Position numbers and translations under genes: made by a program. The notes under the pieces are model-generated. The model was not told where the DNA came from and made no database searches. It saw only the letters and a program-made list of their open reading frames with translations. A stretch of 39,650 bases of DNA. It comes from an uncultured Candidatus Saccharibacteria bacterium (GTDB taxonomy: Bacteria; Patescibacteriota; Minisyncoccia; Minisyncoccales; Staskawiczbacteraceae). Shown in pieces: positions 13,859 to 32,431 of this stretch (positions are counted from its first letter, which is position 1; every line of letters begins with the position of its first letter). The stretch lies in assembly GCA_964592355.1 (NCBI GenBank), contig CAZQBZ010000002.1:1-39650 (forward strand). The letters are read 5' to 3'.

Positions 13859-14290
13859 ATGAAAAAAGAAAAAGGTTTTACGCTTGTCGAGCTTGTGATA
13901 ACCATTGCCATTATTGGGATTTTATCAACGATTGTCATGTTCAGCGTAGTGCAATATGTGAATAAGAGTAAGGATGCTAATATAGTGGGAAACTTGGCCA
14001 TTTTGGTTTCGTCCGGAGAAGTGTATTATAACAGCAATCAGGATTATGACGGATTTTGCGCTTCCAGCGTTGTCACAAACTCGTTTGCAGAAATGCCAAA
14101 AGTGGGAAGCTCTACTTATGGCTGTATCGAGGGGTATGACAATGATTCTTGGGTTGCCTACGCCCAAATGTTTTCCAATAATGATTATGCTTATTGCGTT
14201 GACAGCAGGGGCGTTAAGAGGAGGATTGATTGGACAAGCGTGGGTTCTATAAATCAAAACTCTTCGGAGTGCCCGGCCGCCGCCAGTTAA
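13859..14290 (+). CDS. Type IV pilin (prepilin with class III signal peptide)
   Basis: MKKEKG|FTLVELVITIAIIGILSTIV, giving a G-1/F+1/E+5 cleavage-methylation motif. Four Cys in the C-terminal half. Three N-X-S/T sequons. Confidence 0.9.
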   Translation: MKKEKGFTLVELVITIAIIGILSTIVMFSVVQYVNKSKDANIVGNLAILVSSGEVYYNSNQDYDGFCASSVVTNSFAEMPKVGSSTYGCIEGYDNDSWVAYAQMFSNNDYAYCVDSRGVKRRIDWTSVGSINQNSSECPAAAS

Positions 14291-14419: not shown

Positions 14420-14842
14420 ATGAAAACACAAAAAGGTTTTACAATTATTGAGTTGATTGTGGTTATCGCCATTATCGCGGTTTTGGCCACAATCGTTATG
14501 ATTAACGTCACCCAATATATCGCCAAAGGAAAAGACGCTTCCATAAAAGGAAACATGTCCTCTATCACCACATCCGCCGCGGCTTATTATGATTCACAAA
14601 GCCCAAACACCTATACAAATTTGCAGAATAACCCGGTTGTCATAGCAGCCAACACTCAGATAAATAAAGCTTCCGGAGAATTGAATTATCTTGCAGCCAA
14701 TGATTCAAGCTGGTGCGCTTGCGCCAATTTGGTAGCAAATAGCGCCAATTATTACTGTGTTGACTCAACTGGATTGAAAGAAGAGGCAGCAGGAGATTGC
14801 GCCACAACTACACTTTGCGACACTACTCAAGCTTGTCACTAA
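14420..14842 (+). CDS. Type IV pilin, candidate major pilin
   Basis: MKTQKG|FTIIELIVVIAIIAVLATIV. Six Cys and three N-X-S/T sequons. It has its own consensus promoter and a strong terminator. Confidence 0.9.
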   Translation: MKTQKGFTIIELIVVIAIIAVLATIVMINVTQYIAKGKDASIKGNMSSITTSAAAYYDSQSPNTYTNLQNNPVVIAANTQINKASGELNYLAANDSSWCACANLVANSANYYCVDSTGLKEEAAGDCATTTLCDTTQACH

Positions 14843-17410: not shown

Positions 17411-18099
17411 AGCTGTCAATAATAATTCCCGCATATAACGAGGAAAAAACAATAGAAGAAATCATTAAAAGGGTTTCCCGGGTTTTATTGCCTGTCTCCA
17501 AAGAGATAATAGCGGTTGACGATAAGTCAACAGATAAGACTTTGGAAATTTTGGAAGGATTGCGGGATAAATACAGCCTCGTTATTGTCAGGCATTCCGA
17601 AAATTCGGGAAAAGGGTCGGCAATACGATCAGGCCTTAAAAAGGCATCGGGGGATTTTGTTATAATACAGGATGCCGACCTGGAATATAACCCGGAGGAT
17701 TACGAAAAATTATTGAAGCCATTTTTGGAAAATAATGCCCAGGTTGTTTACGGGTCTCGCATCATGGGTGGCAAAAAACGCGGCAAGCTTGCGTTTTATC
17801 TTGGAGGAAGGGGTGTAACCTTAATGACAAATATAATTTGCGGAATAAATATCACTGATGAGCCGACTTGTTATAAGGTTTTTAAAAAGGATTTGTTGGA
17901 TTCGCTTGATTTGCAGTCCAAGGGTTTTGAATTCTGTCCCGAGGTGACGGCTAAAATCGCCAAACGCAAGATTAAAATTTTTGAAGTGCCGATTTCATAC
18001 AATCCCAGGGGAAAGTCAGAGGGCAAAAAGATAAAATGGAGGGATGGATTTGTGGCGATATGGACTTTGTTAAAATGCAGGTTTTGGTATAATAAATAA
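17407..18099 (+). CDS. GT2-family polyprenyl-phosphate glycosyltransferase (DPM1/GtrB-like)
   Basis: LSIIIPAYNEE, AVDDKSTDKT, VIIQDADLEYNPEDY. Soluble, 230 aa. Confidence 0.85.
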   Translation: MKLSIIIPAYNEEKTIEEIIKRVSRVLLPVSKEIIAVDDKSTDKTLEILEGLRDKYSLVIVRHSENSGKGSAIRSGLKKASGDFVIIQDADLEYNPEDYEKLLKPFLENNAQVVYGSRIMGGKKRGKLAFYLGGRGVTLMTNIICGINITDEPTCYKVFKKDLLDSLDLQSKGFEFCPEVTAKIAKRKIKIFEVPISYNPRGKSEGKKIKWRDGFVAIWTLLKCRFWYNK

Positions 18100-18897
18100 A
18101 TGGATTTGATTTTGTTTTCGGGGTATTTTTTTGTTTTTATTCTGGGCTTGTGCATAGGCAGTTTTTTAAACTGCGTTATATACAGGATGGAGCAGGACAA
18201 AAAAATAACAGGACGAAGTTTTTGCCCCCATTGCAAGAAAACTTTAAGATGGATAGACTTGATTCCTGTTTTAAGTTTTATTTTTTTGGGCGGAAAATGC
18301 AGGCATTGCAAGAATAAAATCTCATGGCAATATCCTGCGGTTGAGCTGGCAACGGGACTGTTATTCCTGTTGATTTTTAATTATGTTATTGCGGGTTTGA
18401 CCCGCAATCCAGGCGACTGGACTCCAGCTTTCGCGGGAATGGCATTTTATTTTTACATTGTAGCTTCGCTCGTCGTCATTTTCGTTTACGACCTGAAACA
18501 TTATTTGATTCCTGATAAAATTTTAATTCCCGCCACGATAATTGCCATAGCTTATATAATTTTAACGTCTCAAAATTTCTTAAACTATCTTTTTGCATCC
18601 GTTGCGGCTTCCGGATTTTTTTTGGCAATATATTTGTTTTCGGGTGGCAGAGCAATAGGCTTTGGCGATGTAAAACTGGCGGTTTTAATGGGTTTTTTGC
18701 TGGGATTTCCCGATATTCTGGTGGCCCTATTCTTTGCTTTTGTAATTGGTGCTATAATAGGAGTAATATCCATACTTTTAAATAAGAAAAATTTAAAAAG
18801 TGAAATTCCGTTTGGTCCGTTTCTGATTTTTGGCACCTTCCTTGCGCTTTTTTTCGGCCAGCAAATAATCGTCTGGTATTTCAATATTTTTGCATAA
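18100..18897 (+). CDS. pilD: Prepilin peptidase / N-methyltransferase PilD (A24 family)
   Basis: GSFLNCVIYR; CPHC...CRHC zinc motif; catalytic Asp motifs VYDLKHYLIPD and GFGDVKLAVLMG. The start abuts the GT2 stop. Confidence 0.92.
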   Translation: MDLILFSGYFFVFILGLCIGSFLNCVIYRMEQDKKITGRSFCPHCKKTLRWIDLIPVLSFIFLGGKCRHCKNKISWQYPAVELATGLLFLLIFNYVIAGLTRNPGDWTPAFAGMAFYFYIVASLVVIFVYDLKHYLIPDKILIPATIIAIAYIILTSQNFLNYLFASVAASGFFLAIYLFSGGRAIGFGDVKLAVLMGFLLGFPDILVALFFAFVIGAIIGVISILLNKKNLKSEIPFGPFLIFGTFLALFFGQQIIVWYFNIFA

Positions 18898-19544
18898 TGT
18901 CATTGAATAAAAACAAAAAATTTAGCAAGGGCTCAACCTTAATAGAGGTTATTGTTTCTATTTCCATTATTGCAATATTTTCTGTAATTATTGTCACGGA
19001 TTTTCCAAAAATAAAAAGGCAATTTGCGATTTCCAGGGCTTCTTACGCGGTGTCGCAATCAGTGAGAAAGGCCGAGGACCTTGGTTTCTCCGGGGCGCAA
19101 GTTACAGATAGCGATGGCGACATAGTGGAGACAAATGGATACGGATTTTATATCAATACTGCCGAAAATGAAGAGGAGCATATAATTTATGCCGACACTG
19201 ATGGCGGAGAAGATCAGAGATTCAGCGGAGGAAGCAGCTGCTCTAATACTCAAATTCCATCCGGAGAAGATTGCATTGTCGAGCTGACTAATATTGCGGA
19301 GTCAGAACAAGAAGTTTTTATAAAAGGGGTTTATAGCCTTACCGCCTGCGGAAATAGCGACATCACCCTTTGTCCAAGAACAGAATGGGTAAGTATAAAT
19401 TTTATGCCCCCGAATCCCACGGTAAAGATCACCAATGACCTGGGAGAAACCGAAACTAAAATAGGCATTGTTTTGGGGGTCAAAAATGACGAGGCGGAAA
19501 GGGTTATTTTTGTAAATTCAACAGGTTTGATTTATGTCAAATAA
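18897..19544 (+). CDS. Minor pilin / pseudopilin-like protein
   Basis: FSKG|STLIEVIVSISIIAIFSVIIV prepilin-type N-terminus with E+5. The ATG overlaps the pilD stop (TAATG). Confidence 0.75.
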   Translation: MSLNKNKKFSKGSTLIEVIVSISIIAIFSVIIVTDFPKIKRQFAISRASYAVSQSVRKAEDLGFSGAQVTDSDGDIVETNGYGFYINTAENEEEHIIYADTDGGEDQRFSGGSSCSNTQIPSGEDCIVELTNIAESEQEVFIKGVYSLTACGNSDITLCPRTEWVSINFMPPNPTVKITNDLGETETKIGIVLGVKNDEAERVIFVNSTGLIYVK

Positions 19545-20109
19545 TTCAAATAAAAACAACTCCAGAGGTTTTACTTTAATAGAACTTATTATATCTATTG
19601 TTGTTTTGTCTGTTGCTGTGATAGGGGCGTACAATGCTTTCACCACAATGGATATTTTAACCGCCAGTTCCACTGACAGGTTTGTGGCGGCATATTTGGC
19701 TCAGGAGGGAATAGAAATAGTAAGAAATATACGAGACACCAATTGGATACGCAATGATGATTGGAGAGAGGGCCTTTATGAAGAAGGGGTTGTAGACTGC
19801 ACCACAAATGGATGCCAGGCCGATTATAAAACCTTTGGCGAGTCTTCAACTCCGCTCGTGGCATACGCCGGTCAAAATTTATATATTGACGAGAATGGGT
19901 TTTATAACTACGCCTCGGGGACGCAGACAAAGTTCAGGAGAAAGATAGTTATAATTCCCATGCAGACGCTGGAAGAAAAAGACGACATACTTAGGGTTAT
20001 AGTGACAGTTTATTGGGATGAAAAGGCCAACATTTTCAGTTCTAGTCCATGCGCCAACGAGGCTGATTGCAGCATAGAGGCCGAAGAATATTTATATAAT
20101 TGGTATTAA
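19534..20109 (+). CDS. Minor pilin, PilV-like
   Basis: NSRG|FTLIELIISIVVLSVAVIGAYNAF prepilin N-terminus. Overlaps the previous gene by 11 nt. Confidence 0.75.
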   Translation: MSNNSNKNNSRGFTLIELIISIVVLSVAVIGAYNAFTTMDILTASSTDRFVAAYLAQEGIEIVRNIRDTNWIRNDDWREGLYEEGVVDCTTNGCQADYKTFGESSTPLVAYAGQNLYIDENGFYNYASGTQTKFRRKIVIIPMQTLEEKDDILRVIVTVYWDEKANIFSSSPCANEADCSIEAEEYLYNWY

Positions 20110-20117
20110 AAAAGTTA

Positions 20118-20167
20118 TAGACGCACGACGTCTGTCAAAAATCCGCCCGAGTTGCGACTTGGCGGGA
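20118..20167. repeat. GC-rich palindromic elements upstream of the third minor pilin gene
   Basis: TAGACGCACGACGTCT (20118-20133) is the reverse complement of the 29000-29015 hairpin. AAAATCCGCCCGAGTTGCGACTTGGCGGGA resembles 14937-14966. Confidence 0.65.
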
Positions 20168-20173
20168 AATGTG

Positions 20174-20824
20174 ATGAATAACAAAGGTTTCACACTTATA
20201 GAATTGATCGTTGTAATGTCTGTTTTTATGCTTATAGTTGCTGTTGCGATCGCGATTTTTCTTTCAATAATATCAAGCCAAAGAAGAATTTTAGCCCAAG
20301 AACAAATGCTCAGCCAGGTCAGTTATGCCATGGAGTATATGTCAAAAGGCCTTAGAATGGCGCAAAAAGATGAGGACGGAGTTTGCCTTGTGCACACTGA
20401 CAGCAATGGCGAGGTTACGCAAAGTTTTCCAGGATATATGTATTTATATACAAGACCAGATTCTCAGACTTCTGTGTATAAAGGAATTAAATTCATAAAC
20501 GCGTCTAATGATGCCGCCTGCCAAGAGTTTTTTTTAGCCGACGGCGATGGAAGCAATAATACCATAAAAGAGCTTAAAGATTCCACAAGCGACAATGACG
20601 CCTCCCTTCTGACAGCAGATAAATATAACATCAATTATTTCAGATATAGCATTAATGGAGGAAGCGGATTGAGCTCAGAGGGAATATATGGAGCCTCAGA
20701 AGACAACACATTGCAACCAAGGGTTACCATAATTATGGGTTTTGAATTGCCTGGAGACGAGACCCAGCCTGAAATTAAAATCCAGACAACAGTTTCGCAA
20801 AGAAATTTAAATGTTTCCCAATAA
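20174..20824 (+). CDS. Minor pilin, PilW-like
   Basis: MNNKG|FTLIELIVVMSVFMLIVAVAIAIF. The ORF track starts at 20159 on a non-ATG codon; I prefer the ATG at 20174. Confidence 0.7.
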   Translation: MNNKGFTLIELIVVMSVFMLIVAVAIAIFLSIISSQRRILAQEQMLSQVSYAMEYMSKGLRMAQKDEDGVCLVHTDSNGEVTQSFPGYMYLYTRPDSQTSVYKGIKFINASNDAACQEFFLADGDGSNNTIKELKDSTSDNDASLLTADKYNINYFRYSINGGSGLSSEGIYGASEDNTLQPRVTIIMGFELPGDETQPEIKIQTTVSQRNLNVSQ

Positions 20825-21749
20825 AACTTCAAAAATAAATAAGGATCAAAAGGGAGTTTCGCTTATTATTTCTTTTTTCATAATGGTGATTATTGTTGCC
20901 ATTGTTTTAGCAATTACAACTTTGCTTTATAATGAAATAAAGATGATAAGAAATATTGGAAATTCGGTTGTGGCTTTTTATGCGGCCGACAGCGGGATTG
21001 AAAAGGTGCTTTATTATGACAGAAAGGTGATCCCTGTCGGGAGCAGAGGGCTATGCTCTATGGTTGAATATAATGCAACGACAAATGACACAGCTTGCCC
21101 GACCAAGGCTCAGATTTCAAGCATCAATTCGGCTCTTAATTGTAACCAGGTTCCGGGAGTTGATTTTAAAGTTATTAACGATGCGACAAAAACAGAAGGA
21201 TGCGATCCGGAAGTATGCAATAACTGCACGATCACATTCGCCACCGATTTCCCCTCAGAAACCGCAAATAATGGAAAAAAATATACCGTATCCGCAAGGG
21301 TGGCGCCGAATTCCGAAGGTGAGATAGAACTTACAATAGATTCTTTGGGCGAATACAAAAGGTTGACCAGAAAAGTTGAGTTGTTTAATGCCGGAACGAC
21401 AGCTCAAGACCTTTTGGCCATAACAGGAGCTTATGCGGAGCCGTTGTCATATCCTGTCGCAAGCTGTACAGCCGGCCAAGGCGTAAACATTGTGGTCAGG
21501 GCTAAATCGGTGAATGTCATCAGCAATGCTTCAGCTTATATTAAAACCTCATGGGATCAAGACTATAGCACAATACCATCGGATAGGATTGTCAGTTTGA
21601 TGCTTTCAGAAGGAACCATCAATGATGGAGAATTTTCGGCAATATGGTGCGGGCCGGAGGGAAGCTATTATGTGGACGTAGTTGTTACCGACGAAGCCGG
21701 ATATTCTGTGAGCGTGGAAAACATTCAACCATTTTATTTTGAGTGGTAA
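20811..21749 (+). CDS. PilX-like minor pilin / pilus-associated protein
   Basis: DQKG|VSLIISFFIMVIIVAIVLAI is a pilin-like hydrophobic N-terminus without E+5, as in PilX-type proteins. Overlaps the previous gene by 14 nt. Confidence 0.6.
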   Translation: MFPNKTSKINKDQKGVSLIISFFIMVIIVAIVLAITTLLYNEIKMIRNIGNSVVAFYAADSGIEKVLYYDRKVIPVGSRGLCSMVEYNATTNDTACPTKAQISSINSALNCNQVPGVDFKVINDATKTEGCDPEVCNNCTITFATDFPSETANNGKKYTVSARVAPNSEGEIELTIDSLGEYKRLTRKVELFNAGTTAQDLLAITGAYAEPLSYPVASCTAGQGVNIVVRAKSVNVISNASAYIKTSWDQDYSTIPSDRIVSLMLSEGTINDGEFSAIWCGPEGSYYVDVVVTDEAGYSVSVENIQPFYFEW

Positions 21750-21758
21750 TATTAATAA

Positions 21759-24700
21759 ATGCGGAAACATTTTTTAAAAATATTTTTTGGACTTTTCGCG
21801 GCATTCATCGGATGGTTTTTGATGCCCCAGATTGTCGGCGCCCAATTTCCCAGTTTTGAATATTATTCTGAACACGCGTATCCGGACGCTGCAAATTTTT
21901 CAGCTGTAGATACTTATACATCCGTAGTTTTTACAGCCACGGTAACGGATATTTCCGGCGTCAATTCAGTTAACGCCATTATAGAAGACGCTAATGGAAA
22001 CCAAATTGGAGACTGGGAAAGAATGTATGACGACGGATACCACGAGGATATGATTGCCGGAGACAACATTTATGGAGCTTTCTTCAGCCTGGACGGATTA
22101 AATGTAAACGGAACTTATTATCTTACTCTTCGCACAACAGACAATCTTTACAATAGCAGTTACGTAAAAAATCCCGATGGCAGTTATACCGAAGTTTATA
22201 AAAGGGCCGCCCTGGTCACAATGAGGCCGGTTTATTGCAACCCAGAATCGGAATCCGCATCACCCAGGCTTTGTATTAAGATAGACATAACAAACCCAAA
22301 AACAATATCAACCTTCACCGTAACTCCTAATTCAATTGAAGATCCTCAAGCTGTAACCCTTACCGCCACTTTGTCTGTTGCTTTGGCGGGACAGCTGATA
22401 ACTTTTAAGGATTTAAGCACGGGCCAAATTATAGGATATGGCTTCACTGACTCCTCGGGAAGCGTTTCGGTGGGTTATGTGCCCGCTCAAACGGCCACGC
22501 TTCAAGCAGTGTATATGGGCGACGCTTTGCGCAAAATTCCTCCATCATACAAAGAAGCCAGTGTAACAGTTGCGAATGCTGGCTCTTGTCAGACTTCTGG
22601 TTTAGTTATATTGTGTCTTGCCCCGATAGGCCCTTCCAACCCAGACACACTGGAATCTTTAACAACAAATGTATCTGGCAATATTGTTGCAGGCCAGGAG
22701 GTCACATTTACTGCGACTATGTCCAGAAGCGTTGCAAGGGCTGGGCAAACAATTTACTTTAGGGATAATGACACAAATGTGCTTTTGGGTTCGGCGGTTA
22801 CTGACTCGGTCGGGCATGCATTTTTCACATACAGGCCGGCTTTTGCGGCCACTCAGGGCCACAGAATAGACGCAATTTATTCTGGGAATCCATTGCTGGG
22901 GCTTGCCCCTTCTTACAAGAGCGTTATGCTTTTTGTCACAGGTTCTTGCGCTGATTCAAACAGTGCCAGCCTTTGCATTGAGCCGACTGTTTCGAATCCA
23001 AACACCATTTCATCATTTACTCTTTCTGCAACAAACAATGAGATGATGCTTTCTGAATATGTAACTATGACAGCCACCTTGTCTACGCCAATAGCGGGCC
23101 AGACAATTTACTTTGTGGATAGATATACTAATGTCACCATAGGCACAGCCACCACAAATTCATCGGGCGTTGCCACAATCACATATCAGCCGGTCTTTAC
23201 TGGCCCCCACGTTTTGGAAGCCCTATACTTTGGCAACTATCTTTTGGATATGGATCCAAGCTTTAAACAACAAACTCTTACGATAACTAATGAGGGTTAT
23301 TGCTATATCTCGGGACTGGTATTGCTCTGCGAAGAAGGTTTACCGATGTGGACGCAAGCAACAATGACGTTTGAGTTAAGTGATTACGATGTTACCGCCG
23401 AGGACACAATTACTTTAACTGCTACAATGTCGGCTCCGTTGGCGGGAATAAACATAACATTCTCAGACAGCACGGCGGGCATAACAATCGGAACCAGACA
23501 GACCAACAGTCAGGGGGTTGCGTCAATCACCTATCAAATTCCAACGACAACCGTCACTTCAACCCATGTGATGAGAGCCGTAAACGGCAGCAATGCCCAG
23601 ACATTAAACCAAAACTTAAATATCACAGCCTTGCCATTAATAGGGTCTCTTGTTCTGGCTCCAACTTCAGTCACTGCCGGAGAATCTGTTTTGATGACGG
23701 CCACAATGGCTCCGGCAATGCAGAATGTATCAGTCACTTTTTATGATGTCACTGCCGGAACGACAATTGGCACCTCGACAACCAATTCATCTGGAGTAGC
23801 TACGCTTACATACAATACCCCATTGAGCCTTACCAATGGCAACCATACAATCAGGGCCCAGAGAAACGACAGCCTCAGGGAAGGAACGGCTACCCTTGTG
23901 GTATCAGCAGTGTGCCAGGTGTCTGGTTCCGCAACACTTTGTTTGCAGGGACCGCCTGCGATAGGAAATCAAAACACGATTTCGTCACTTAATTTATCAA
24001 GCAGTACTATTAATATATCAGAATGGGTAACGATGACGGCCACTCTTTCTACTCCAATTCCGGGACAAACAATCTATTTTATTGACAGAAATGCCAGCCA
24101 GATAGGCACGGCTGTTACTAATTCAGACGGAATAGCTACATATTCATTTCAGCCTGCATTTACCGGACCCCACACAATAGAAGCCCTTTATAACGGCAGT
24201 TACTTGTATGGCCTTGCTCCGTCGTATAAACAGCAAACACTTACCGTAAACGCCAATGCGAATTGCCAGATTTCCGGCTCAACTTTGTTGTGCATAACTG
24301 CCACTCCCGCAATCAATAATTCCACAATGGCCACCAGCTTAAGCGTGCCGTCTGTGCAAGCCGAGGGCACCGTAACAGTGATAGCCCAAATGTCTGCCGC
24401 ATTGCCAGGCATAATGATTACATTTAGAGATGTTACAAGCAGTACGGCCTTAGGCACAGTGCCAACTGATGCAACAGGCAGAGCATCAGTTAATTACAGA
24501 ATTCCAACGGGTACGGCCTCGGGCACTCATACAATTACCGCCGTTAACGCAAGCAATGGTGAAACTGACACGGTTTATCTGGAAATTTCCGACCTTCCGC
24601 TTATAGGTTCCATAACATTAAATCCGACGACAATATCAGCCGGAGAATCCACGACAGTCACAGCCGTTACCGCGCCAGTTCTTGCCGATGTGTCAATTAC

Positions 24701-27548
24701 CTTTTTTGACGATACGGCTGCCACAACAATTGGCTCTGCCACCACAAATTCATCGGGCGTTGCCACAATCACATACAACACCCCAACAAGCCTCACCAAT
24801 GGCAACCATACAATCAGGGCCCAGAGAAACGACAGCCTCAGGGAGGCAACCGCCACTCTTGTGGTGTCAGCATTGTGCCAAAATTCAAACTCGGCAACGC
24901 TTTGTTTGCAAACCCCGCCAGCAATAGGAAACCAAAATACCTTGTCGTTTCAGCTTAGCCAGTCCACGATTACTATTGCAGAATGGGTGACAATGACAGC
25001 TGCTTTATCAAGTCCAATTTCAGGCCAAACAATCTATTTTATGGACAGATACAATAATACTCAGATAGGCACTGCTATAACCGATTCTGATGGAGCTGTT
25101 TCATATTCATTCCAGCCAAACTTTACAGGAACGCATGTGATAGAGGCCACATTTAACGGAAACTATATGTATGACCTTGCACCATCATATAAGCAACAAA
25201 ACCTTACCGTAAATGCCAATGCGAATTGCCAGATTTCCGGCTCTACAATGTTATGCCAATCGGCTGCTCCTACAATCAATAACTCCACAATGAGTTTTAC
25301 ATTAAGCGTGCCGTCTGTGCAAGCCGAGGGCACAGTAACTCTTATTGCTCAGATGTCAAGCTCAATAGCGGGGTCGGTTATCACATTTTCTGACACAACA
25401 TCGGGCGTAACCATAGGCACCAGGCAAACCGATTCAACAGGCAGGGCAACAATTGACTATACAATTCCATCCGGAACATCAACAGGAACCCATGTGATGA
25501 GGGCGGTCAATGCCAATAACGGTGAGACCAAAACAGCTAATTTGGAAATTTCCGACCTTCCGCTTATAGGATCTTTGGTGCTTAATCCCACATCAATTAC
25601 TGCCGGAGAATCTGTTACCGTCACTGCCACAATGGCTCCGGTGCTGGCAGATGTGTCAGTTACTTTCTATGACGACACGGCTGCCACAACAATTGGCACT
25701 GCAACCACCAATTCATCCGGTGTTGCCACAGTTACATATAACACCCCCACAAGCCTTGCTGATGGCAACCACACAATCAGGGCCCAGAGAAACGACAGCC
25801 TCAGGGAGGCAACCGCCACTTTGGCAGTTTCAGGACTGTGTTTGACTTCAAACTCCGCAAGACTGTGTTTGTCCAGTCCGGTGACAGCGTCAAATCCGGA
25901 AACCATATCTTCATTTACACTTAGCTCTTCAACAATAACCCTTTCCGATTGGGTGACTTTAACAGCTCAATTGTCCAGCGCGGTCGCGAATGAAACAATA
26001 ACATTTATTGACAGGACAACCGGAACCACTTGGGGCACCGCTAATACCGACTCAAGCGGAGAAGCCGTTTTCTTGTTCCAACCAAACTATACAGGCACTC
26101 GCACTATTGAGGCCGTATATACAGGAAAATATTTGTTAAATTTGTCGCCCTCATACAAACAGCAAAGCCTTACAATAAACGCGCAAGACGGATGTCAGAT
26201 AAACGGTTCAACAATGCTTTGCATAGACCCGCCGGAAGTGGGATATCCTTCGGTAAGTGAATTTTCAGCCAGCCCATTTTTCGTGGAGGCGGGCTCACAG
26301 ACAACACTTACTGCCACATTATCCATACCTATCCCATATCTTACGATCACATTTACCGACACCACGCTATCAACAACAATAGGCACGGCTATCACTAATA
26401 AATCCGGAACCGCCACCATAAATTACGTGATTCCTTATGACGCCCCCACAGGCACCCGCAATCTTACAGCTTCATTCCTGACGGCTTCAAAAACGGCTAC
26501 AATGCAAGTTTTGGGTCCGACAATAGAAGGCTGGCCATACAGAAAATCCATTACGATAAGCACAGCAAATGCAGACGAAACATTTAATGATTTTCCGCTG
26601 TTGGTGAAGATAACGAATGACGCGGATATAGGCACCTATTCAATGGCATCTGGTGACGATATCAGGTTTGCCGATGCTTCGGGCAATGCTTTGCCTTATG
26701 AAAGAGAATCTTGGTCTGGTGGCGGTGGTAATCCGGCTTCTGGAATATTCTGGGTAAGGGTGCCAAGCATAAGCGCAGACAACGACACCACAATTTATGT
26801 TTATTATGGCAATGCAAATGCCCAGAATGTAAACTCGGCCAAATTTGTATGGGAGTCAAATTATAAAGCGGTTTTCCATTTTGGTTCTGGATCAACATTT
26901 TCAACCCTGGATTCTACCGCAAATAACAATCACGCCACAAACATTTCAGATGTGACCGCCTATTCTTCAGGAAAAGTGGGGGCTGCAGGATATTTTTCCG
27001 GTTCAAACTATTTGACGGTTCCAAATATCTCTTCGCTTGTTAGCGCCCAGAAGTTTACGGTTTCGGCATTTGTGTATCCGCAGACACTTGTTTCAACGGC
27101 CTGGTTCTCAAAGGGAACCGCCGGAAGCTATACAGACAATATTTTATTCTGTCTGGACGGAGAGCCAAGATATGGAGTTAAAAACGGGCTTGATAACATG
27201 GCAGTCGCCCCTGCGCTTACAACAAACAGCTGGTATGGATTGTCTGTAGTGTTTGATGGCTCACAGACAGGCAATGATAACAGGCTTAAAATATATCAAA
27301 ACGCAGTGCAACAATTAGCCGACTTTATCATAGACAACTACACGGTGCCGGCTACAACATCTGCCAATACCGGCCTTGAATACATCGGCACGCATGGGGT
27401 AACCGCCAGCTCGTGGAGATGGCTGGGATATATTGACGAATTCCGCATTTCCAGCGTTGCAAGGTCAGCGGCTTACAATAAATTTATGTACAACAACATA
27501 AACAGCGCCACAAACGAGCTTACTTTTGGACTGCATTCAACCCCGTAG
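21759..27548 (+). CDS. Giant secreted repeat protein: N-terminal domain, about 13 Ig-like modules, C-terminal DUF2341 and LamG (concanavalin A-like lectin) domains. Candidate pilus-associated adhesin.
   Basis: Signal peptide MRKHFLKIFFGLFAAFIGWFLMPQIVGA. Repeated V.LTATLS..(A/P)GQTIYF.D....IGTA.T...G.A modules. DUF2341-like WPYRKSITIS...DIRFADASGNALPYERESW...IYVYYGN. LamG-like KAVFHF...GYIDEFRISSVARS. Confidence 0.8.
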   Translation: MRKHFLKIFFGLFAAFIGWFLMPQIVGAQFPSFEYYSEHAYPDAANFSAVDTYTSVVFTATVTDISGVNSVNAIIEDANGNQIGDWERMYDDGYHEDMIAGDNIYGAFFSLDGLNVNGTYYLTLRTTDNLYNSSYVKNPDGSYTEVYKRAALVTMRPVYCNPESESASPRLCIKIDITNPKTISTFTVTPNSIEDPQAVTLTATLSVALAGQLITFKDLSTGQIIGYGFTDSSGSVSVGYVPAQTATLQAVYMGDALRKIPPSYKEASVTVANAGSCQTSGLVILCLAPIGPSNPDTLESLTTNVSGNIVAGQEVTFTATMSRSVARAGQTIYFRDNDTNVLLGSAVTDSVGHAFFTYRPAFAATQGHRIDAIYSGNPLLGLAPSYKSVMLFVTGSCADSNSASLCIEPTVSNPNTISSFTLSATNNEMMLSEYVTMTATLSTPIAGQTIYFVDRYTNVTIGTATTNSSGVATITYQPVFTGPHVLEALYFGNYLLDMDPSFKQQTLTITNEGYCYISGLVLLCEEGLPMWTQATMTFELSDYDVTAEDTITLTATMSAPLAGINITFSDSTAGITIGTRQTNSQGVASITYQIPTTTVTSTHVMRAVNGSNAQTLNQNLNITALPLIGSLVLAPTSVTAGESVLMTATMAPAMQNVSVTFYDVTAGTTIGTSTTNSSGVATLTYNTPLSLTNGNHTIRAQRNDSLREGTATLVVSAVCQVSGSATLCLQGPPAIGNQNTISSLNLSSSTINISEWVTMTATLSTPIPGQTIYFIDRNASQIGTAVTNSDGIATYSFQPAFTGPHTIEALYNGSYLYGLAPSYKQQTLTVNANANCQISGSTLLCITATPAINNSTMATSLSVPSVQAEGTVTVIAQMSAALPGIMITFRDVTSSTALGTVPTDATGRASVNYRIPTGTASGTHTITAVNASNGETDTVYLEISDLPLIGSITLNPTTISAGESTTVTAVTAPVLADVSITFFDDTAATTIGSATTNSSGVATITYNTPTSLTNGNHTIRAQRNDSLREATATLVVSALCQNSNSATLCLQTPPAIGNQNTLSFQLSQSTITIAEWVTMTAALSSPISGQTIYFMDRYNNTQIGTAITDSDGAVSYSFQPNFTGTHVIEATFNGNYMYDLAPSYKQQNLTVNANANCQISGSTMLCQSAAPTINNSTMSFTLSVPSVQAEGTVTLIAQMSSSIAGSVITFSDTTSGVTIGTRQTDSTGRATIDYTIPSGTSTGTHVMRAVNANNGETKTANLEISDLPLIGSLVLNPTSITAGESVTVTATMAPVLADVSVTFYDDTAATTIGTATTNSSGVATVTYNTPTSLADGNHTIRAQRNDSLREATATLAVSGLCLTSNSARLCLSSPVTASNPETISSFTLSSSTITLSDWVTLTAQLSSAVANETITFIDRTTGTTWGTANTDSSGEAVFLFQPNYTGTRTIEAVYTGKYLLNLSPSYKQQSLTINAQDGCQINGSTMLCIDPPEVGYPSVSEFSASPFFVEAGSQTTLTATLSIPIPYLTITFTDTTLSTTIGTAITNKSGTATINYVIPYDAPTGTRNLTASFLTASKTATMQVLGPTIEGWPYRKSITISTANADETFNDFPLLVKITNDADIGTYSMASGDDIRFADASGNALPYERESWSGGGGNPASGIFWVRVPSISADNDTTIYVYYGNANAQNVNSAKFVWESNYKAVFHFGSGSTFSTLDSTANNNHATNISDVTAYSSGKVGAAGYFSGSNYLTVPNISSLVSAQKFTVSAFVYPQTLVSTAWFSKGTAGSYTDNILFCLDGEPRYGVKNGLDNMAVAPALTTNSWYGLSVVFDGSQTGNDNRLKIYQNAVQQLADFIIDNYTVPATTSANTGLEYIGTHGVTASSWRWLGYIDEFRISSVARSAAYNKFMYNNINSATNELTFGLHSTP
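22947..25838 (+). repeat. Three in-frame tandem super-repeats (966, 963 and 963 bp) inside the giant gene
   Basis: Unit boundaries at the Cys codons 22947, 23913, 24876 and 25839. GGCAACCA(T/C)ACAATCAGGGCCCAGAGAAACGACAGCCTCAGGGA recurs at 23838, 24801 and 25764, exactly 963 bp apart, with one C/T difference in the third copy. Confidence 0.9.
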
Positions 27549-27581
27549 TTGTAAAGCCCAGTGGCCTGACAATTTATCCAC

Positions 27582-27611
27582 TTGCCATCTTTAACAACAA
27601 CAATGTATAAT
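27582..27611 (+). promoter_or_regulatory. Sigma70-like promoter candidate
   Basis: TTGCCA (27582-27587), 18 nt, TATAAT (27606-27611). Confidence 0.45.
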
Positions 27612-27661
27612 AATATAATTAAGCGTTGTTCCCTGCCAATGGGAGCAGAATAAATAAAAAT

Positions 27662-28063
27662 ATGGATAAAAAAACAATTATTTTAATAGTAGTAGTTTTA
27701 ATTTTAATTTTAGCGGCAGTGGGCGGTTTGGTTTTTGTATTAATGAATAAAAATTCGGACGGTTCGTTGCCAGGGCCAAAGGTTTCTGAAAACGGAGAGA
27801 TTATATACGAGCAGGTTCCCCTTGAAGAGGCCGAGGCCCAGGTAAACAAAGATTTTCCTGATACATTAACTGGCACGCTTGAATTTGGCGCAAACGACAA
27901 GGCAACCCTAAAAACATCAACCAAAACATATACATTCACCCCGGACCAGCCCAAAGGGATTTATGAGTCTTTTGGTGTTGAAGAAGGCGACCGTGTAACC
28001 GTAAAATGCAAAATTTTGGATAACAATACAATTCAACTATTTTCAATGGACGTCGCAAAATAA
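27662..28063 (+). CDS. Small membrane-anchored hypothetical protein
   Basis: MDKKTIILIVVVLILILAAVGGLVFVL signal anchor. The ORF track starts at TTG 27626; I prefer the ATG at 27662. Confidence 0.6.
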   Translation: MDKKTIILIVVVLILILAAVGGLVFVLMNKNSDGSLPGPKVSENGEIIYEQVPLEEAEAQVNKDFPDTLTGTLEFGANDKATLKTSTKTYTFTPDQPKGIYESFGVEEGDRVTVKCKILDNNTIQLFSMDVAK

Positions 28064-28087
28064 ACCTAAAGCGTCATTAAAAACATT

Positions 28088-28858
28088 ATGAAAAACTATT
28101 TTTTATTCATTTTCGCGGCCTTGGTTCTCTTTGTGGCTCCGCAATTTGCATCAGCCGCCAACTACTTTGTGGGTGTCACAATAGCCTCGGGACAGGCTCC
28201 CGGATACCCAAGCGGAACAACAAACACTAATTGGTGTTTGCCGGCGATAAGCCCACAAACCACTGGCTACGGTACTCGATTCTACATTAGAAGTGGAACA
28301 TCCAATCTTACACCCGTAAGTCCGACGACCAATCCGATTGATTTGGCAGGTCCTGCCTGCGCAGGCGACACTGTGTGGAGCGGTTTGTTTAACCTTACCA
28401 GCGGAACAACCTACAATGCCTATTTTAATGCTCAATCTTATGCTTATTGTCCTGGAGTAATGGATTATGACGAGTGTCAAATTTGGTGCGACTACTCTTG
28501 TTGGGTTTCTTGGGACACTCCAGGGCAGAATAAAAGCTGTGCCGAAGTGTGCGCTCATTATGGAACTACGCCAAGAATTTATACAAGCAATTATCCCGTT
28601 CTTTTCCGTCCGGCAGCCCATAACTGCAGAACTGTTGCAAAACTCTTGGGTGGCACTTGCTCAAGCTGTACAACCAATGGCACCTATGATTATTACAACC
28701 CCACCACCTTTGCCTGTACTACAACAACAAGCACCCATAATACGGCTGACGCAAACGGCAACGCAACATTGGGATCGGACTTAGTTAGAGTTTGCGCCTG
28801 TAATGTTTTAAACAGTACAGCAGCATCTTTCTCTTTTAATTTTACCCCTACATTTTAA
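28088..28858 (+). CDS. Secreted Cys-rich, Thr/Asn-rich protein, paralog A
   Basis: Signal peptide MKNYFLFIFAALVLFVAPQFASA|AN. 14 Cys and 7 N-X-S/T sequons. No recognised family. Confidence 0.75.
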   Translation: MKNYFLFIFAALVLFVAPQFASAANYFVGVTIASGQAPGYPSGTTNTNWCLPAISPQTTGYGTRFYIRSGTSNLTPVSPTTNPIDLAGPACAGDTVWSGLFNLTSGTTYNAYFNAQSYAYCPGVMDYDECQIWCDYSCWVSWDTPGQNKSCAEVCAHYGTTPRIYTSNYPVLFRPAAHNCRTVAKLLGGTCSSCTTNGTYDYYNPTTFACTTTTSTHNTADANGNATLGSDLVRVCACNVLNSTAASFSFNFTPTF

Positions 28859-28903
28859 AATTTTAAATTCGCCCGTGCCGCGGCTCGGGCGGGTTATGTA
28901 TAA

Positions 28904-28942
28904 AAAAGCCCCTTTCAAGATTTTATCCTTAAAGGGGCTTTT
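28904..28942. terminator. Bidirectional rho-independent terminator between the convergent paralogs
   Basis: AAAAGCCCCTTT (28904-28915) pairs with AAAGGGGCTTTT (28931-28942). Flanking A and T runs provide a U-tract on both strands. Confidence 0.75.
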
Positions 28943-28967
28943 TAGAAAGTATTTTCCGCGAGAACTT

Positions 28968-29016
28968 CCGCCGACGTCGTGCGTCGGCGGACTTTCGATA
29001 GACGTCGTGCGTCTAT
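28968..29016. repeat. Two copies of the GACGTCGTGCGTC hairpin repeat
   Basis: CCGCCGACG-TCGTG-CGTCGGCGG (28968-28990) and ATAGACG-TCGTG-CGTCTAT (28998-29016). Confidence 0.7.
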
Positions 29017-29019
29017 TTT

Positions 29020-29796
29020 TTAGAAGGTTGGAGTGAAGTTAAAGGAAAAAGACGCCGCCGTGCTATTTAACAAATTGCAGGCACAGACTCTAACAACATC
29101 AGATCCTAAAGTAGCGTTGCCGTTTGCGTCAGCCGTATTATGGGTGCTTGTTGTTGTAGTACAGGCAAAGGTGGTGGGGTTGTAATAATCATAGGTGCCA
29201 TTGGTTGTACAGCTTGAGCAAGTGCCACCCAAAAGACGTGACACTATTGAACAATTTTTAGATGTGGACATGCCGAGTATCGGATAGTTACTGGTGTACA
29301 TCTGGGGGGTTGTCCCATAACGAGCGCACACTTCAGCACAGCTTTTGTTCTGTCCTGGAGTATCCCAAGCCGCCCAACAAATAGGACCATTATACTCATA
29401 GCTACCATTATAATAATACGCTTGTGTTCCCGGGCAATAAGCATAAGATTGAGCGTTAAAATAGGCATTGTAGGTTGTTCCGCTGGTAAGGTTGAATAGG
29501 CCAGACCAGACTGTATCTCCTGAACAAGCAGGACCTGCCAAGTCAACAGGATTGGTTGTCGGGCTCACTGGAGTAAGGTTTGTTGTTCCGCTTCTGATGT
29601 AGAATCGGGTCCCCCAACTAGTGGTCTCTGGGCTTATCGCCGGCAAACACCAATTAGTGTTTGTTGTTCCGCTTGGGTATCCGGGAGCCTGTCCCGAGGC
29701 TATTGTGACACCCACAAAGTAGTTGGCGGCTGATGCAAATTGCGGAGCCACAAAGAGAACCAAGGCCGCGAAAATGAATAAAAAATAGTTTTTCAT
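29020..29796 (-). CDS. Secreted Cys-rich, Thr/Asn-rich protein, paralog B
   Basis: 258 aa. The signal peptide and first 56 aa are identical to paralog A. 12 Cys. The central blocks are replaced. Confidence 0.75.
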   Translation of the reverse strand: MKNYFLFIFAALVLFVAPQFASAANYFVGVTIASGQAPGYPSGTTNTNWCLPAISPETTSWGTRFYIRSGTTNLTPVSPTTNPVDLAGPACSGDTVWSGLFNLTSGTTYNAYFNAQSYAYCPGTQAYYYNGSYEYNGPICWAAWDTPGQNKSCAEVCARYGTTPQMYTSNYPILGMSTSKNCSIVSRLLGGTCSSCTTNGTYDYYNPTTFACTTTTSTHNTADANGNATLGSDVVRVCACNLLNSTAASFSFNFTPTF

Positions 29797-29845
29797 AATG
29801 TTTTTAATGATGCTTTAGGTTTATTTTGCGACGTCAATAAAAAAT

Positions 29846-29887
29846 CTCGGGAGCCGCGGCTTTTCCGCCGACGTCGGGCGTCGGCGG
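29846..29887. repeat. GC-rich palindromic repeats flanking the right arm
   Basis: CTCGGGAGCCGCGGC shares GAGCCGCGGC with the reverse complement of 28877-28886. CCGCCGACGTCGGGCGTCGGCGG (29865-29887) differs from 28968-28990 by one loop base. Confidence 0.65.
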
Positions 29888-29953
29888 GTTTGTCTTGGCA
29901 AGCCAAATAGGTTGTGTTAAACTAAGTCTAACCAGGCTAAATTAAAATATAAT

Positions 29954-30430
29954 ATGGATAAACAAACAATAAATAAATTTTGGCTGCCCGCGCTGATTTT
30001 TGCGGTTGTGGCAGTATTGCTCTATGCCTTCTTTTTTATTGATTTTTGGGGATCAGGCAAGGAAGCAGACTTAAACACCTTGACCGACCAGCAAATAATC
30101 GAAATTCTTAAAACAAATGCGGATGTTGCAGATTACATTTCAAGAAATCCAGATTTTGGCATTCAGAGCAAAGAAATTTTAACAAAGGATTCTATATTAA
30201 AGGGTCAAAATCAAAACACATTTCAGCCTGTGTATATAGGCTTGGAGCTTGAAGATACCAGGTATTTGAAAGTTCAGCTGATGAACGCTTCCGGCAGAGA
30301 GGGATATATCACCGTTATCGACGGCAACGACAGCAGTGTGCAAAAAGCTTTTGGCATGCTTTTGTTGCAAATGTCTCAACAGGAAATTGAGCAACAACTC
30401 CAGCAAAGCAGTCAAAGTCCCGCCCAATAG
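29954..30430 (+). CDS. Membrane-anchored hypothetical protein
   Basis: N-terminal TM (FWLPALIFAVVAVLLYAFFFI) and a Gln-rich C-terminus. Confidence 0.6.
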   Translation: MDKQTINKFWLPALIFAVVAVLLYAFFFIDFWGSGKEADLNTLTDQQIIEILKTNADVADYISRNPDFGIQSKEILTKDSILKGQNQNTFQPVYIGLELEDTRYLKVQLMNASGREGYITVIDGNDSSVQKAFGMLLLQMSQQEIEQQLQQSSQSPAQ

Positions 30431-30439
30431 CCTAATTTT

Positions 30440-32431
30440 ATGGACAAGCAGGAAGCAAAAACCAGAATAGAAAAGTTGATAGCGGTGATTAACCATCACC
30501 GCTATCTTTATCATGTTTTGGACAGGCAGGAAATTTCCGATGCGGCTTTAGACTCTTTAAAAAAAGAGCTTTTTGATTTGGAACAACAATTCCCGGATTT
30601 GGCCTCAAAAGATTCTCCAACGCAGCGCGTCGGCGGCAAAGCGCTTAAAGAATTTAAAAAAGTCAGGCATTCTACGCGGATGACTTCTTTTAACGACGCG
30701 TTTTCATCAGAGGATATGCAAGACTGGCTTGAAAGAATTTCAAAACTGCTTACAGAAAAAGAGAAGCAAGAATTAAACTTCTATTGCGAGCTTAAAATTG
30801 ACGGCTTGGCCATTGAGCTGGTATATGAAAATGGATTTTTAAAAACTGGATCAACGCGCGGCGATGGAAATATTGGCGAAGATATTACAGAAAATTTAAA
30901 AACCGTTGAGGCAATCCCATTAAAAATTGAAGAATCTAAAAATATAATTGTTCGCGGGGAAGTGTTTATCACTAAAAAAGAATTTGAACGCATAAACAAA
31001 GAGCAAGAGAAAAAGGGTTTGCCGGTTTATGCAAACCCCCGCAACATTGCGGCAGGCTCCTTACGTCAGCTTGACCCAAAAGTTACGGCAAGCAGAAAGC
31101 TGGATTCTTTTGCTTATGAAATTGCAGAAGGGGCAGAAACGGAAACGCACGAGCAAAAACACGAAATTTTGCATGGCTTGGGGTTTAAAACCAACAAACA
31201 CAACAAATTTTGCAAAGACTTGGATGAGGTGATACATTTTCACGAGCACTGGATAAAAGCCCGACAGAAGTTGGATTATGAAATAGATGGCATTGTGGTG
31301 CTGGTAAATAATAATGAAATTTTTGACAAGCTTGGCATTGTGGGCAAATCTCCAAGAGGCGGAATTGCTTTTAAGTTTCCGCAACAGCAGGCAACCGCAA
31401 AAGTGTTGGATGTTAAATTGCAGGTGGGCAGGACAGGCGCAATCACGCCCGTGGCTGTTTTGGAGCCGGTGCAAGTATCGGGGATTACAATCAGCCGCGC
31501 CACTTTGCACAATGATGACGAAATAAAAAGACTGGGCCTTAAAATCGGCGACACGGTTGTTGTTGGCAGGGCGGGAGACGTGATACCGGAAATCAGCCAG
31601 GTGTTGCCCGATTTAAGAACAGGTAAAGAAAATCCTTTTAAAATGCCAACCCATTGCCCCAGTTGCAACACCAAGCTGGTAAAAGATGAAGGCGGCGCAC
31701 TATTAAGGTGTCCAAACAAAAACTGTTTTGCGCAAAAACGCAGAGGGTTTTATCATTTTGTTTCGAGAGCGGCATTTAATATAGACAAGCTCGGCCCAAA
31801 AATCATAGACAAGCTTTTGGACGAGGGCCTTGTGCAAACACCAGCCGATCTGTTTGATTTAAAAGAGGGAGATGTTGCCGTGTTGGAAAGATTTGCCCAA
31901 AAGTCGGCAAGCAATCTGATAAATTCAATACAATCTCATCGTAAAATTTCTTTGCCCAAATTTATTTTTGCTCTTGGGATTCGCAATGTGGGCGAGCAGA
32001 CAGCCATTGATTTGGCGGAGCATTTTGGCAGTGTGGAGAAGATAAGGTCTGCAAAGCTTGAAGATTTTGACGCAATTTCTGACATCGGGCCTGTTGTGTC
32101 AAAGTCTATTTTTGAGTGGTTTGGCGACAAAGACAATTTAAAATATTTGGAGAAGTTGGAGAATGCGGTGGAAATTAAAAACGAGCGCAAATCGGCCAGC
32201 CAAGGAAGGCTGTCGGGCAAAACATTTGTTCTGACGGGGACGCTCGAAAGCCTGGCGCGAGACGACGCCAAAGCTAAAATCCGCCAGCTGGGCGGCGATG
32301 TTTCTGAAAGCGTATCAAAGAAAACAGACTTTGTTATCGCGGGCCAGGAGGCAGGCTCAAAACTGCAAAAAGCCGAAAGCCTAGGCGTAAAAATTCTATC
32401 CGAAAAAGAATTTTTAAACTTAATAAAATAA
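30440..32431 (+). CDS. ligA: NAD-dependent DNA ligase LigA
   Basis: Adenylation motif CELKIDGLAIEL. OB fold. Zinc finger CPSC...CPNKNC. HhH region. C-terminal BRCT (GKTFVLTGTL...DFVIAGQEAGSKLQKA). Confidence 0.97.
   Translation: MDKQEAKTRIEKLIAVINHHRYLYHVLDRQEISDAALDSLKKELFDLEQQFPDLASKDSPTQRVGGKALKEFKKVRHSTRMTSFNDAFSSEDMQDWLERISKLLTEKEKQELNFYCELKIDGLAIELVYENGFLKTGSTRGDGNIGEDITENLKTVEAIPLKIEESKNIIVRGEVFITKKEFERINKEQEKKGLPVYANPRNIAAGSLRQLDPKVTASRKLDSFAYEIAEGAETETHEQKHEILHGLGFKTNKHNKFCKDLDEVIHFHEHWIKARQKLDYEIDGIVVLVNNNEIFDKLGIVGKSPRGGIAFKFPQQQATAKVLDVKLQVGRTGAITPVAVLEPVQVSGITISRATLHNDDEIKRLGLKIGDTVVVGRAGDVIPEISQVLPDLRTGKENPFKMPTHCPSCNTKLVKDEGGALLRCPNKNCFAQKRRGFYHFVSRAAFNIDKLGPKIIDKLLDEGLVQTPADLFDLKEGDVAVLERFAQKSASNLINSIQSHRKISLPKFIFALGIRNVGEQTAIDLAEHFGSVEKIRSAKLEDFDAISDIGPVVSKSIFEWFGDKDNLKYLEKLENAVEIKNERKSASQGRLSGKTFVLTGTLESLARDDAKAKIRQLGGDVSESVSKKTDFVIAGQEAGSKLQKAESLGVKILSEKEFLNLIK

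Follow-up and report, generated by a model that had tools for sequence, protein, structure and literature searches.

To our knowledge, all cultivated bacteria of the Candidate Phyla Radiation (CPR) attach to host cells, type IV pili are the best-supported organ of that attachment, and the CPR adhesins identified so far come only from Saccharibacteria, as lectin-like modules fused to PilX pilins. In Nanosynbacter lyticus, PilX1 (a jelly-roll) and PilX2 (a propeller) have been found experimentally to bind host cell walls (PMC11623550; bioRxiv 10.64898/2026.10.06.756255), and the monoderm Streptococcus sanguinis bears a lectin module on PilC (PMC9934059). PilC/PilY1 proteins use a terminal tail to dock on PilX through beta-strand augmentation (PMC13711793), and in the archaeon Methanococcus the DUF2341 giants of pilus loci were proposed in 2016 as PilY-like tip proteins (PMC4858521), with one DUF2341 gene of that genus among the hits when pilus-dependent transformation was screened (PMC10133366). 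Here we analyze a 39,650-nt stretch of contig CAZQBZ010000002.1 (hereafter the window) from an uncultured Candidatus Saccharibacteria bacterium that is placed in the Staskawiczbacteraceae in GTDB, where a gene for a 1929-aa secreted protein (21759-27548, forward strand; open reading frame (ORF) call and translation) directly follows that of a PilX-type minor pilin. The general idea of lectin-like or DUF2341 pilus tips is already known; what appears to be new is a design in trans, with a family of N-terminal adaptors matched to an immunoglobulin (Ig)-like extension of the PilX-type pilin and carrying interchangeable payloads.

An earlier note on this DNA, made from the letters alone, had described a gene that starts 9 nt after the last upstream pilin gene and encodes a protein with a Sec-type signal peptide in place of a pilin N terminus, about 13 Ig-like modules and terminal DUF2341 and LamG domains, and our analysis bears out this outline throughout. 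The spacer between the stop of the PilX-like gene (20811-21749) and the start codon is 9 nt long, reading TAA TAT TAA TAA ATG. Sequence inspection gives a Sec-type signal peptide at aa 1-28 (21759-21842) with a predicted cut after VGA, the leader/mature junction being MRKHFLKIFFGLFAAFIGWFLMPQIVGA/QFPSF (slashes here and below mark predicted processing sites; the VGA/Q site is of Sec type). This is the sole strongly hydrophobic segment of the protein, none outside it scoring above 1.63, and Pfam finds no N_methyl or PilX_N match in the sequence. We also find no recognizable anchor, in the form of an SLH match, an LPXTG motif or a transmembrane (TM) segment. Behind the signal peptide lies a module that we term the N-domain (aa 29-176, ~148 aa; 21843-22286), made up of a mature N-terminal tail, QFPSFEYYSEHAYP, and an Ig-like core, which we propose, on the strength of family alignments and its constant position beside a PilX-like gene, to be an adaptor to the PilX-like pilin. 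It is followed by a stalk that comprises 13 Big_3_5-type, Ig-like modules and their Cx8C loops (22287-26498; Pfam and self-comparison), by a DUF2341 region (26499-26963; PF10102 match at aa 1632-1697, E 1.4e-14, 54.7 bits against a cutoff of 23.4) and by a Laminin_G_3/concanavalin A-like domain (26964-27545; PF13385, aa ~1747-1905, E 1.4e-13, 51.7 bits against a cutoff of 27.6), all on the forward strand. Both of the latter matches exceed the Pfam gathering scores, with the Laminin_G_3 match appearing only when the C terminus (aa 1582-1929, the last 348 aa) is scanned alone and being absent from the whole-protein list. This LamG domain, the presumed binding head, forms the C terminus of the protein, which ends in ...NELTFGLHSTP.

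Within the stalk, Big_3_5 (PF16640) matches in 11 stretches above its gathering score (E 1.5e-70, 234 bits), and a comparison of excised modules with the whole protein raises the count to 13 Ig-like modules, with nine Cx8C loops lying between them. Ten of the 13, plus one partial module, are taken in by a 321-aa A-B-C super-repeat with units at aa 409-728, 729-1049, 1050-1370 and 1371-1600 (the last one partial), which are 45-74% identical to the unit at 729-1049. Self-BLAST of the full protein returned the identity match only, the repeat layout coming from the excised modules, and Tandem Repeats Finder reported no repeats in the gene. Full-length orthologs occur on independent contigs from other samples, in loci L092 (1928 aa) and L094 (first called at 1946 aa, and 1942 aa long when counted from its ATG), and share the 13-module layout, with per-domain identities of 86-95% and 76-78%, respectively. 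Against the near-identical strain L092 it is the N-domain (21843-22286) that diverges most (85.8% versus ~95% for the stalk, DUF2341 and LamG), and against the more distant L094 all parts of the protein fall within the same 76-78%. For the DUF2341-LamG region, a single-sequence AF2 fold reached a pLDDT of 35, and a PDB sequence search gave as its closest match a weak one, to the arabinanase 5hon (E 0.0024).

The N-domain family is defined here, as Pfam holds no model for it. A profile search of 1.84 billion representative proteins gave 540 matches of two kinds: internal, multicopy Ig-like repeats with a generic MYDDGxHxD...IY motif, and, in ~35 of the top 150, a single copy right behind a signal peptide. 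All single-copy proteins carry PSFE[IV]Y-x5-YP a few residues from the predicted signal-peptidase site, a typical N terminus reading ...A/Q-x-P-S-F-E-I-Y, and in a 25-sequence alignment the tail residues F5, E6, Y8 and P14 are invariant and the tail as a whole is better conserved than the Ig core (2.9 versus 2.2 bits per column). The window protein fits this family, with its single N-terminal copy after the signal peptide and the invariant F, E, Y and P in place. What follows the N-domain varies widely: single-copy members from the protein search measure ~170 to 1700 aa, those at the loci described below have total lengths of 219 to 1946 aa, and across 38 members Pfam recognizes Big_3_5 (17), DUF2341 (6), Laminin_G_3 (4), Peptidase_C1 (4) and PKD (4) behind the N-domain, with cadherin-like, CBM9 and heparinase II/III-like domains in a few. 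Papain-family cysteine protease domains are carried by four of these 38 PSFE[IV]Y proteins (among P0219-P0368), and enzymes as well as adhesins may use the adaptor.

The gene directly upstream encodes a long-form, Glu5-less minor pilin of 312 aa (20811-21749, forward strand) with the leader QKG/VSLII, a weak PilX_N match (E 0.039) and homologs that NCBI names "PilX N-terminal domain-containing protein"; its counterpart in relatives is the last minor pilin before ligA. Its C-terminal Ig-like extension (aa ~200-312; 21408-21746, forward strand) is the proposed docking partner, as suggested by profile alignment, a confidently modeled fold and co-occurrence with a downstream N-domain gene. Six long-form PilX homologs (34-82% identity) were examined, and an N-domain gene lies directly downstream of five of them (L087, L088, L090, L113 and L114). 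In L087, the closest homolog, this gene is cut by the contig end, with L094 from the same species supplying the full gene; in the others its product can be a 499-aa protein with the N-domain, two Ig modules and DUF2341 (L090), a 486-aa one with the N-domain, DUF2341 and LamG (L113) or a 592-aa one with the N-domain and Big_3_5 (L114). The sixth, L112, has ligA next. Four loci from a scan seeded on PilD (L012, L019, L031 and L033) likewise have, after the PilX-like gene, one that shares the N-domain with the window protein and differs in the remainder, four Big_3_5 stretches in L012 and DUF2341-LamG straight after the N-domain in L033; a homologous-protein search with the L012 N-domain found the query itself only.

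Together, every protein sharing this N-domain for which upstream DNA can be read directly follows a PilX-type minor pilin gene. The synteny with minor pilins on which the earlier note had let its own proposal stand or fall is thus not lost within the relevant clade, where the PilX-type gene sits directly upstream throughout. With an N-domain pattern (from a 7-sequence alignment) as its only seed, a metagenome scan recovered 20 loci, with a PilX-like gene directly upstream in 10 of the 10 that hold an N-terminal-type copy and in none of the 10 that hold internal repeats. Conversely, an N-domain gene follows in 22 (16 distinct lineages, the window and 15 further) of the 24 loci whose PilX-like protein gives a match to the profile for the C-terminal extension in the window, both exceptions being weak matches to that profile, versus none of the 28 loci whose PilX-like protein has no such match. 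Restricting the count to the PilD-seeded loci, a subset with no bias toward either feature, gives the table [[4,1],[0,28]] and a Fisher p of 1.2e-4, a value that overstates independence because the loci are related by descent. The pairing of N-domain and PilX extension persists across complete changes of payload. We also observe that in L090 (10908-15284, equivalent to L097 9920-14296) the protein after the PilX-like one stops right after DUF2341, at 499 aa, and that its gene is followed by one for apolipoprotein N-acyltransferase (Lnt) and then by one for a distinct Laminin_G_3 protein (431 aa) that has a hydrophobic N terminus of its own; it looks as if the DUF2341-LamG cassette has been split there.

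The two proposed partners also resemble each other. An hhalign comparison of the PilX extension (11-sequence alignment) with the N-domain (25-sequence alignment) gives a probability of 97.6% (E 3.8e-12), and a mixed MAFFT alignment laid the N-domain rows onto the PilX extension, showing their likeness; judged by these profiles, the extension is homologous to the Ig core of the N-domain. The 1929-aa gene is in frame with the PilX-like one, and for AF2 co-folding we used a single chain, a table-6 read-through composed of the PilX-like protein, QYQQ and aa 1-176 of the 1929-aa protein, with paired alignment rows from five loci that allow the same read-through (5-6 rows). The Ig extension of the pilin was modeled at pLDDT 83-93 and the Ig module of the N-domain at 84-91, with Foldseek matches to generic tandem Ig domains, and the conserved tail emerged as coil (block-mean pLDDT 35-64). 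Lying in the model outside its own domain, this highly conserved tail would be consistent with a segment that becomes structured upon contact with a partner.

Further support for a physical link comes from fusions in cis. In L069 (Moranbacteria; 12573-13640) PilX_N and Laminin_G_3 are joined in one 355-aa protein, in L015 (12841-14319) a PilX-like protein carries a Fib_succ_major domain, and in L024 (4037-5527) a minor pilin bears a BNR/Sortilin-type propeller, all three fusions occupying pilin positions where the PilX/N-domain pairing is absent. Three further proteins of ~1100 aa, P0039 (a Staskawiczbacteria protein by NCBI annotation), P0041 and P0044, have a prepilin leader (KG/ITLIE, KG/VTLIE and KG/ISLIE, respectively) followed by DUF2341 and LamG, and the genes for the latter two (loci L001 and L002) lie between PilC and another pilin. 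By the Rosetta-stone argument, such fusions of LamG or DUF2341-LamG to pilins in relatives support a physical connection between LamG payloads and the pilus.

Metatranscriptomic contigs from four runs of one study match the window at at least 99% identity. These RNA-derived contigs cover the PilX-like gene, the junction at 21747-21897 and ~15 places in the 1929-aa gene, and none of the four runs yields a contig on 14914-21040. So uneven a pattern is unlike even DNA carry-over, and the 1929-aa gene is therefore probably expressed in situ. Transcription possibly starts inside or just before the PilX-like gene, and a consensus scan found no strong promoter match between that gene and the 1929-aa gene. 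The same kind of scan places the region's best sigma-70-like matches shortly behind the stop codon of the latter (27582-27619, forward strand; two sites, 11/12 positions), likely the start of the next transcription unit. One low-depth contig (run X20) joins position 24737 back to 23148, within the Ig super-repeat, and could represent a strain with another module arrangement or a chimeric contig. The deepest RNA-derived contigs fall on the second pilin gene (14420-14842, word depth 5-8) and none fall on the first (13859-14290), so that the second probably encodes the major pilin in situ.

In light of these results, we lean, by a narrow balance of probability, toward the 1929-aa protein being a pilus-tip payload supplied in trans, PilY1/PilC-like in its working and outside that family. 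This reading draws on the domain layout of the protein and its synteny, on the way its gene tracks the PilX extension, on the homology between Ig modules, on cis fusions in relatives and on the matching RNA contigs; docking on the PilX-like pilin, the location at the tip and the binding of a ligand are the steps that we infer. Sec would export the protein, and removal of the signal peptide would bare the PSFE[IV]Y-x5-YP tail together with the Ig-like N-domain. This N-terminal module would then dock on the PilX-type pilin whose gene ends 9 nt upstream, at its C-terminal Ig-like extension, and that pilin, with the three other minor pilins, would prime and cap the type IV pilus, so that the 1929-aa protein would ride at the pilus tip. 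There the 13-module stalk would keep the DUF2341 and LamG (concanavalin-like) head clear of the fiber, the head would bind a surface glycan or other ligand on a partner cell, and retraction of the pilus, for which the window encodes PilT, would draw the cells together. The earlier note's interpretation of a pilus-associated adhesin analogous to PilY1 is thus supported by the comparative evidence, gene order and domain content included, and the crude co-fold of the PilX-like protein with aa 1-176 gave no confident interface.

Several observations weigh against this reading. The co-fold reached a pTM of 0.35 with no confident interface, in a weak test that comprised one chain, a hydrophobic signal-peptide linker, shallow pairing and one of the four minor pilins. 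The majority of Parcubacteria have no such gene, with ligA directly after the PilX-like one, and the association of N-domain and PilX extension may go back to one ancestral event in a single clade, the loci not being independent. The RNA contigs cover the 1929-aa gene and leave out minor pilins 1-3, which hints at expression partly independent of the minor pilins. Other DUF2341-LamG-Big_3_5 giants lie away from pilus genes, some of them with SLH anchors, and a check of the large DUF2341-LamG relatives P0002, P0005 and P0006 found no pilus context. The window itself holds a second giant (34162-39159, 1665 aa), membrane-anchored and unrelated to pili, whose DUF2341 and Laminin_G_3 cassette comes right after an N-terminal TM segment and which ends in a C-terminal TM segment. 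Finally, any lectin activity of the DUF2341-LamG head is a presumed one.

Alternatively, the protein could be secreted or sit on the cell surface as an adhesin in its own right, or form a fiber associated with the S-layer; it would be co-regulated with the pilus for attachment and not carried on it, its N-domain serving as a cell-envelope attachment or oligomerization module. The many DUF2341-LamG-Big_3_5 giants outside pilus loci, some with SLH anchors, the co-fold without an interface and the RNA contigs on the 1929-aa gene with none on minor pilins 1-3 favor such an adhesin, as does the position of the gene in a variable, higher-GC island among other secreted proteins. We regard it as plausible though less likely: co-regulation leaves unexplained both the strict adjacency to the PilX-like gene, kept across 16 lineages with varied payloads, and the all-or-none tie to a pilin extension that is itself a homologous Ig module, and the LamG-pilin fusions in cis speak for a physical link. 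That the 1929-aa protein has no recognizable SLH, LPXTG or TM anchor likewise speaks against it.

Two further explanations touch the payload and the ORF themselves. If the pilus machinery worked as a type II secretion (T2SS)-like piston, the N-domain and tail could be a recognition signal on Sec-exported enzymes and adhesins, a cargo that the minor-pilin tip pushes through the wall and releases, and the enzyme payloads of the family (papain-like proteases and a heparinase II/III-like lyase), the constant N-terminal module ahead of a changing payload and a partner of the GspK/PilX type would all make sense. We consider this improbable, as a lectin-like head on a long Ig stalk resembles a displayed adhesin more than a released enzyme and we know of no T2SS substrate signal of the PSFE[IV]Y-tail kind. 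CPR cells are, moreover, generally taken to have no outer membrane, which leaves a T2SS-like step without an obvious role, and a single membrane has been inferred for a related genus (PMC11809585). It is very improbable that the long ORF is an assembly artifact of a repetitive region, the true gene being shorter or broken: a 963-nt super-repeat does invite misassembly, and the one low-depth RNA contig joining 24737 to 23148 could be read that way, but intact 13-module orthologs exist in contigs from independent samples (L092 and L094) and the repeats, which Tandem Repeats Finder does not report, are just 45-74% identical at the protein level.

Returning to a payload mounted at the pilus tip in trans, a wider proposal, which we advance tentatively and at somewhat less than even confidence, is a parcubacterial plug-in tip in which the Ig-like extension of PilX serves as a socket and Sec-exported N-terminal adaptors mount interchangeable payloads. 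These would include lectin heads on stalks of varied length, papain-like proteases and polysaccharide lyases. If true, such a system would be an evolutionary alternative to fusing payload and pilin, delivering wall-degrading enzymes as well as adhesins to the host cell, and the locus suggests that the Parcubacteria, a very large and uncultured group, have such a second design: a separate secreted payload with a small conserved adaptor matched to a pilin extension. The adaptor would then be a sequence tag by which host-interaction proteins, enzymes included, could be recognized in metagenomes, the length extremes of the N-domain proteins would be relevant to the reach that a binding head needs beyond the pilus tip, and the adaptor-socket pair, as a compact protein-protein interaction, would be easy to test.

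The surrounding locus is that of a type IV pilus, with PilD, an AglB-type oligosaccharyltransferase, a GT2 glycosyltransferase, two pilins, PilC, PilT, PilB and PilM-O encoded upstream of the minor pilins. The four overlapping prepilin-type genes reported in the earlier note require some revision, as three have N_methyl matches and the fourth is the Glu5-less, PilX_N-like pilin, and as a gap of 49 nt separates minor pilins 2 and 3 as called. On the forward strand, minor pilin 1 (18897-19544, 215 aa; N_methyl E 2.3e-5) is the first gene after PilD in relatives too, and minor pilins 2 (19534-20109, 191 aa; E 3.6e-9) and 3 (20159-20824, 221 aa as called; E 4.6e-7) keep their order there; the true start of the third is probably an ATG a few codons further in, before NKGFTLIE. 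An archaeal-type AglB/STT3 oligosaccharyltransferase (811 aa) and the GT2 occupy 14975-18099, between the pilin genes and pilD, an arrangement also found in L087, L088, L090 and L092. The 1929-aa protein contains 42 N-x-S/T sequons against ~32 expected from its composition and, with an AglB-type gene nearby, may be a glycosylation substrate.

The PilD-seeded scan of species-representative genomes covered 80 loci, the closest from Candidatus Staskawiczbacteria (65% PilD identity), which marks the source of the window as a Staskawiczbacteria-like Parcubacterium, an ultra-small member of the CPR, and the usual order among the Parcubacteria is PilD, three minor pilins, the PilX-like gene and then at once a ~670-aa gene. 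We considered the latter as a protein in the PilY1 position and rejected it, as it encodes LigA, the NAD-dependent DNA ligase, found in the window at 30440-32431. Because ligA directly follows the PilX-like gene in most relatives, 21759-30430 is a variable island, with a G+C content of 0.44-0.47 against 0.38-0.41 in its flanks. It contains the 1929-aa gene, a 145-aa ORF, two Cys-rich paralogs and a 158-aa ORF. The Cys-rich secreted paralogs face each other (28088-28858, forward; 29020-29796, reverse), and this island contains a homolog in L090/L097 and L092 as well, and in L098 one lies behind the N-domain gene, so that the Cys-rich protein tends to travel with the N-domain gene.

Compared with described systems, the 1929-aa protein shares its DUF2341 and Laminin_G_3 cassette, often accompanied by Big_3_5, with generic surface giants of CPR, DPANN and other bacteria (SLH-, T9SS- or RHS-linked), of which those examined are not beside pilus genes, have other anchors or toxin modules and do not possess the N-terminal adaptor domain. 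Closer in context are the DUF2341 giants of archaeal Epd loci (Methanococcus; arCOG03508), which are also large non-pilin proteins within a type IV pilus locus and predicted tip adhesins; they belong to another domain of life, and the PSFE[IV]Y adaptor and the link to a PilX extension are undescribed there, so that it is by their descriptions that the two are set apart. With PilX1 and PilX2 of Nanosynbacter and PilC of S. sanguinis, our system would have in common a lectin-like (jelly-roll or ConA-like) module at the tip of a monoderm or CPR type IV pilus, and the in-cis design of those pilins recurs in relatives of the window, in the PilX_N-LamG protein of L069 and the prepilin-DUF2341-LamG proteins P0041 and P0044. 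In the window, unlike in these modular pilins, the lectin-like module belongs to a polypeptide of its own, which has a Sec leader and carries the module beyond a ~1400-aa stalk; as it lacks a prepilin (class III) leader, the protein is not itself a modular pilin. The closest parallel in working is PilY1/PilC of Pseudomonas, Neisseria, Kingella and Myxococcus, likewise large Sec-exported non-pilins that are encoded with the core minor pilins beside a PilX-type one and that combine a constant adaptor part with a variable adhesive part. The earlier note saw no sequence similarity to PilY1, and indeed the whole 1929-aa protein gives no Pfam PilY1/PilC match (Neisseria_PilC/PilY1 beta-propeller) at E <= 0.01; with no propeller and no C-terminal tail to augment a PilX beta-sheet, it is not a member of that family. 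The polarity is, furthermore, reversed relative to PilY1/PilC, with the conserved adaptor and its tail at the N terminus and the adhesive head at the C terminus, and the proposed dock would be the Ig-like extension of the pilin.

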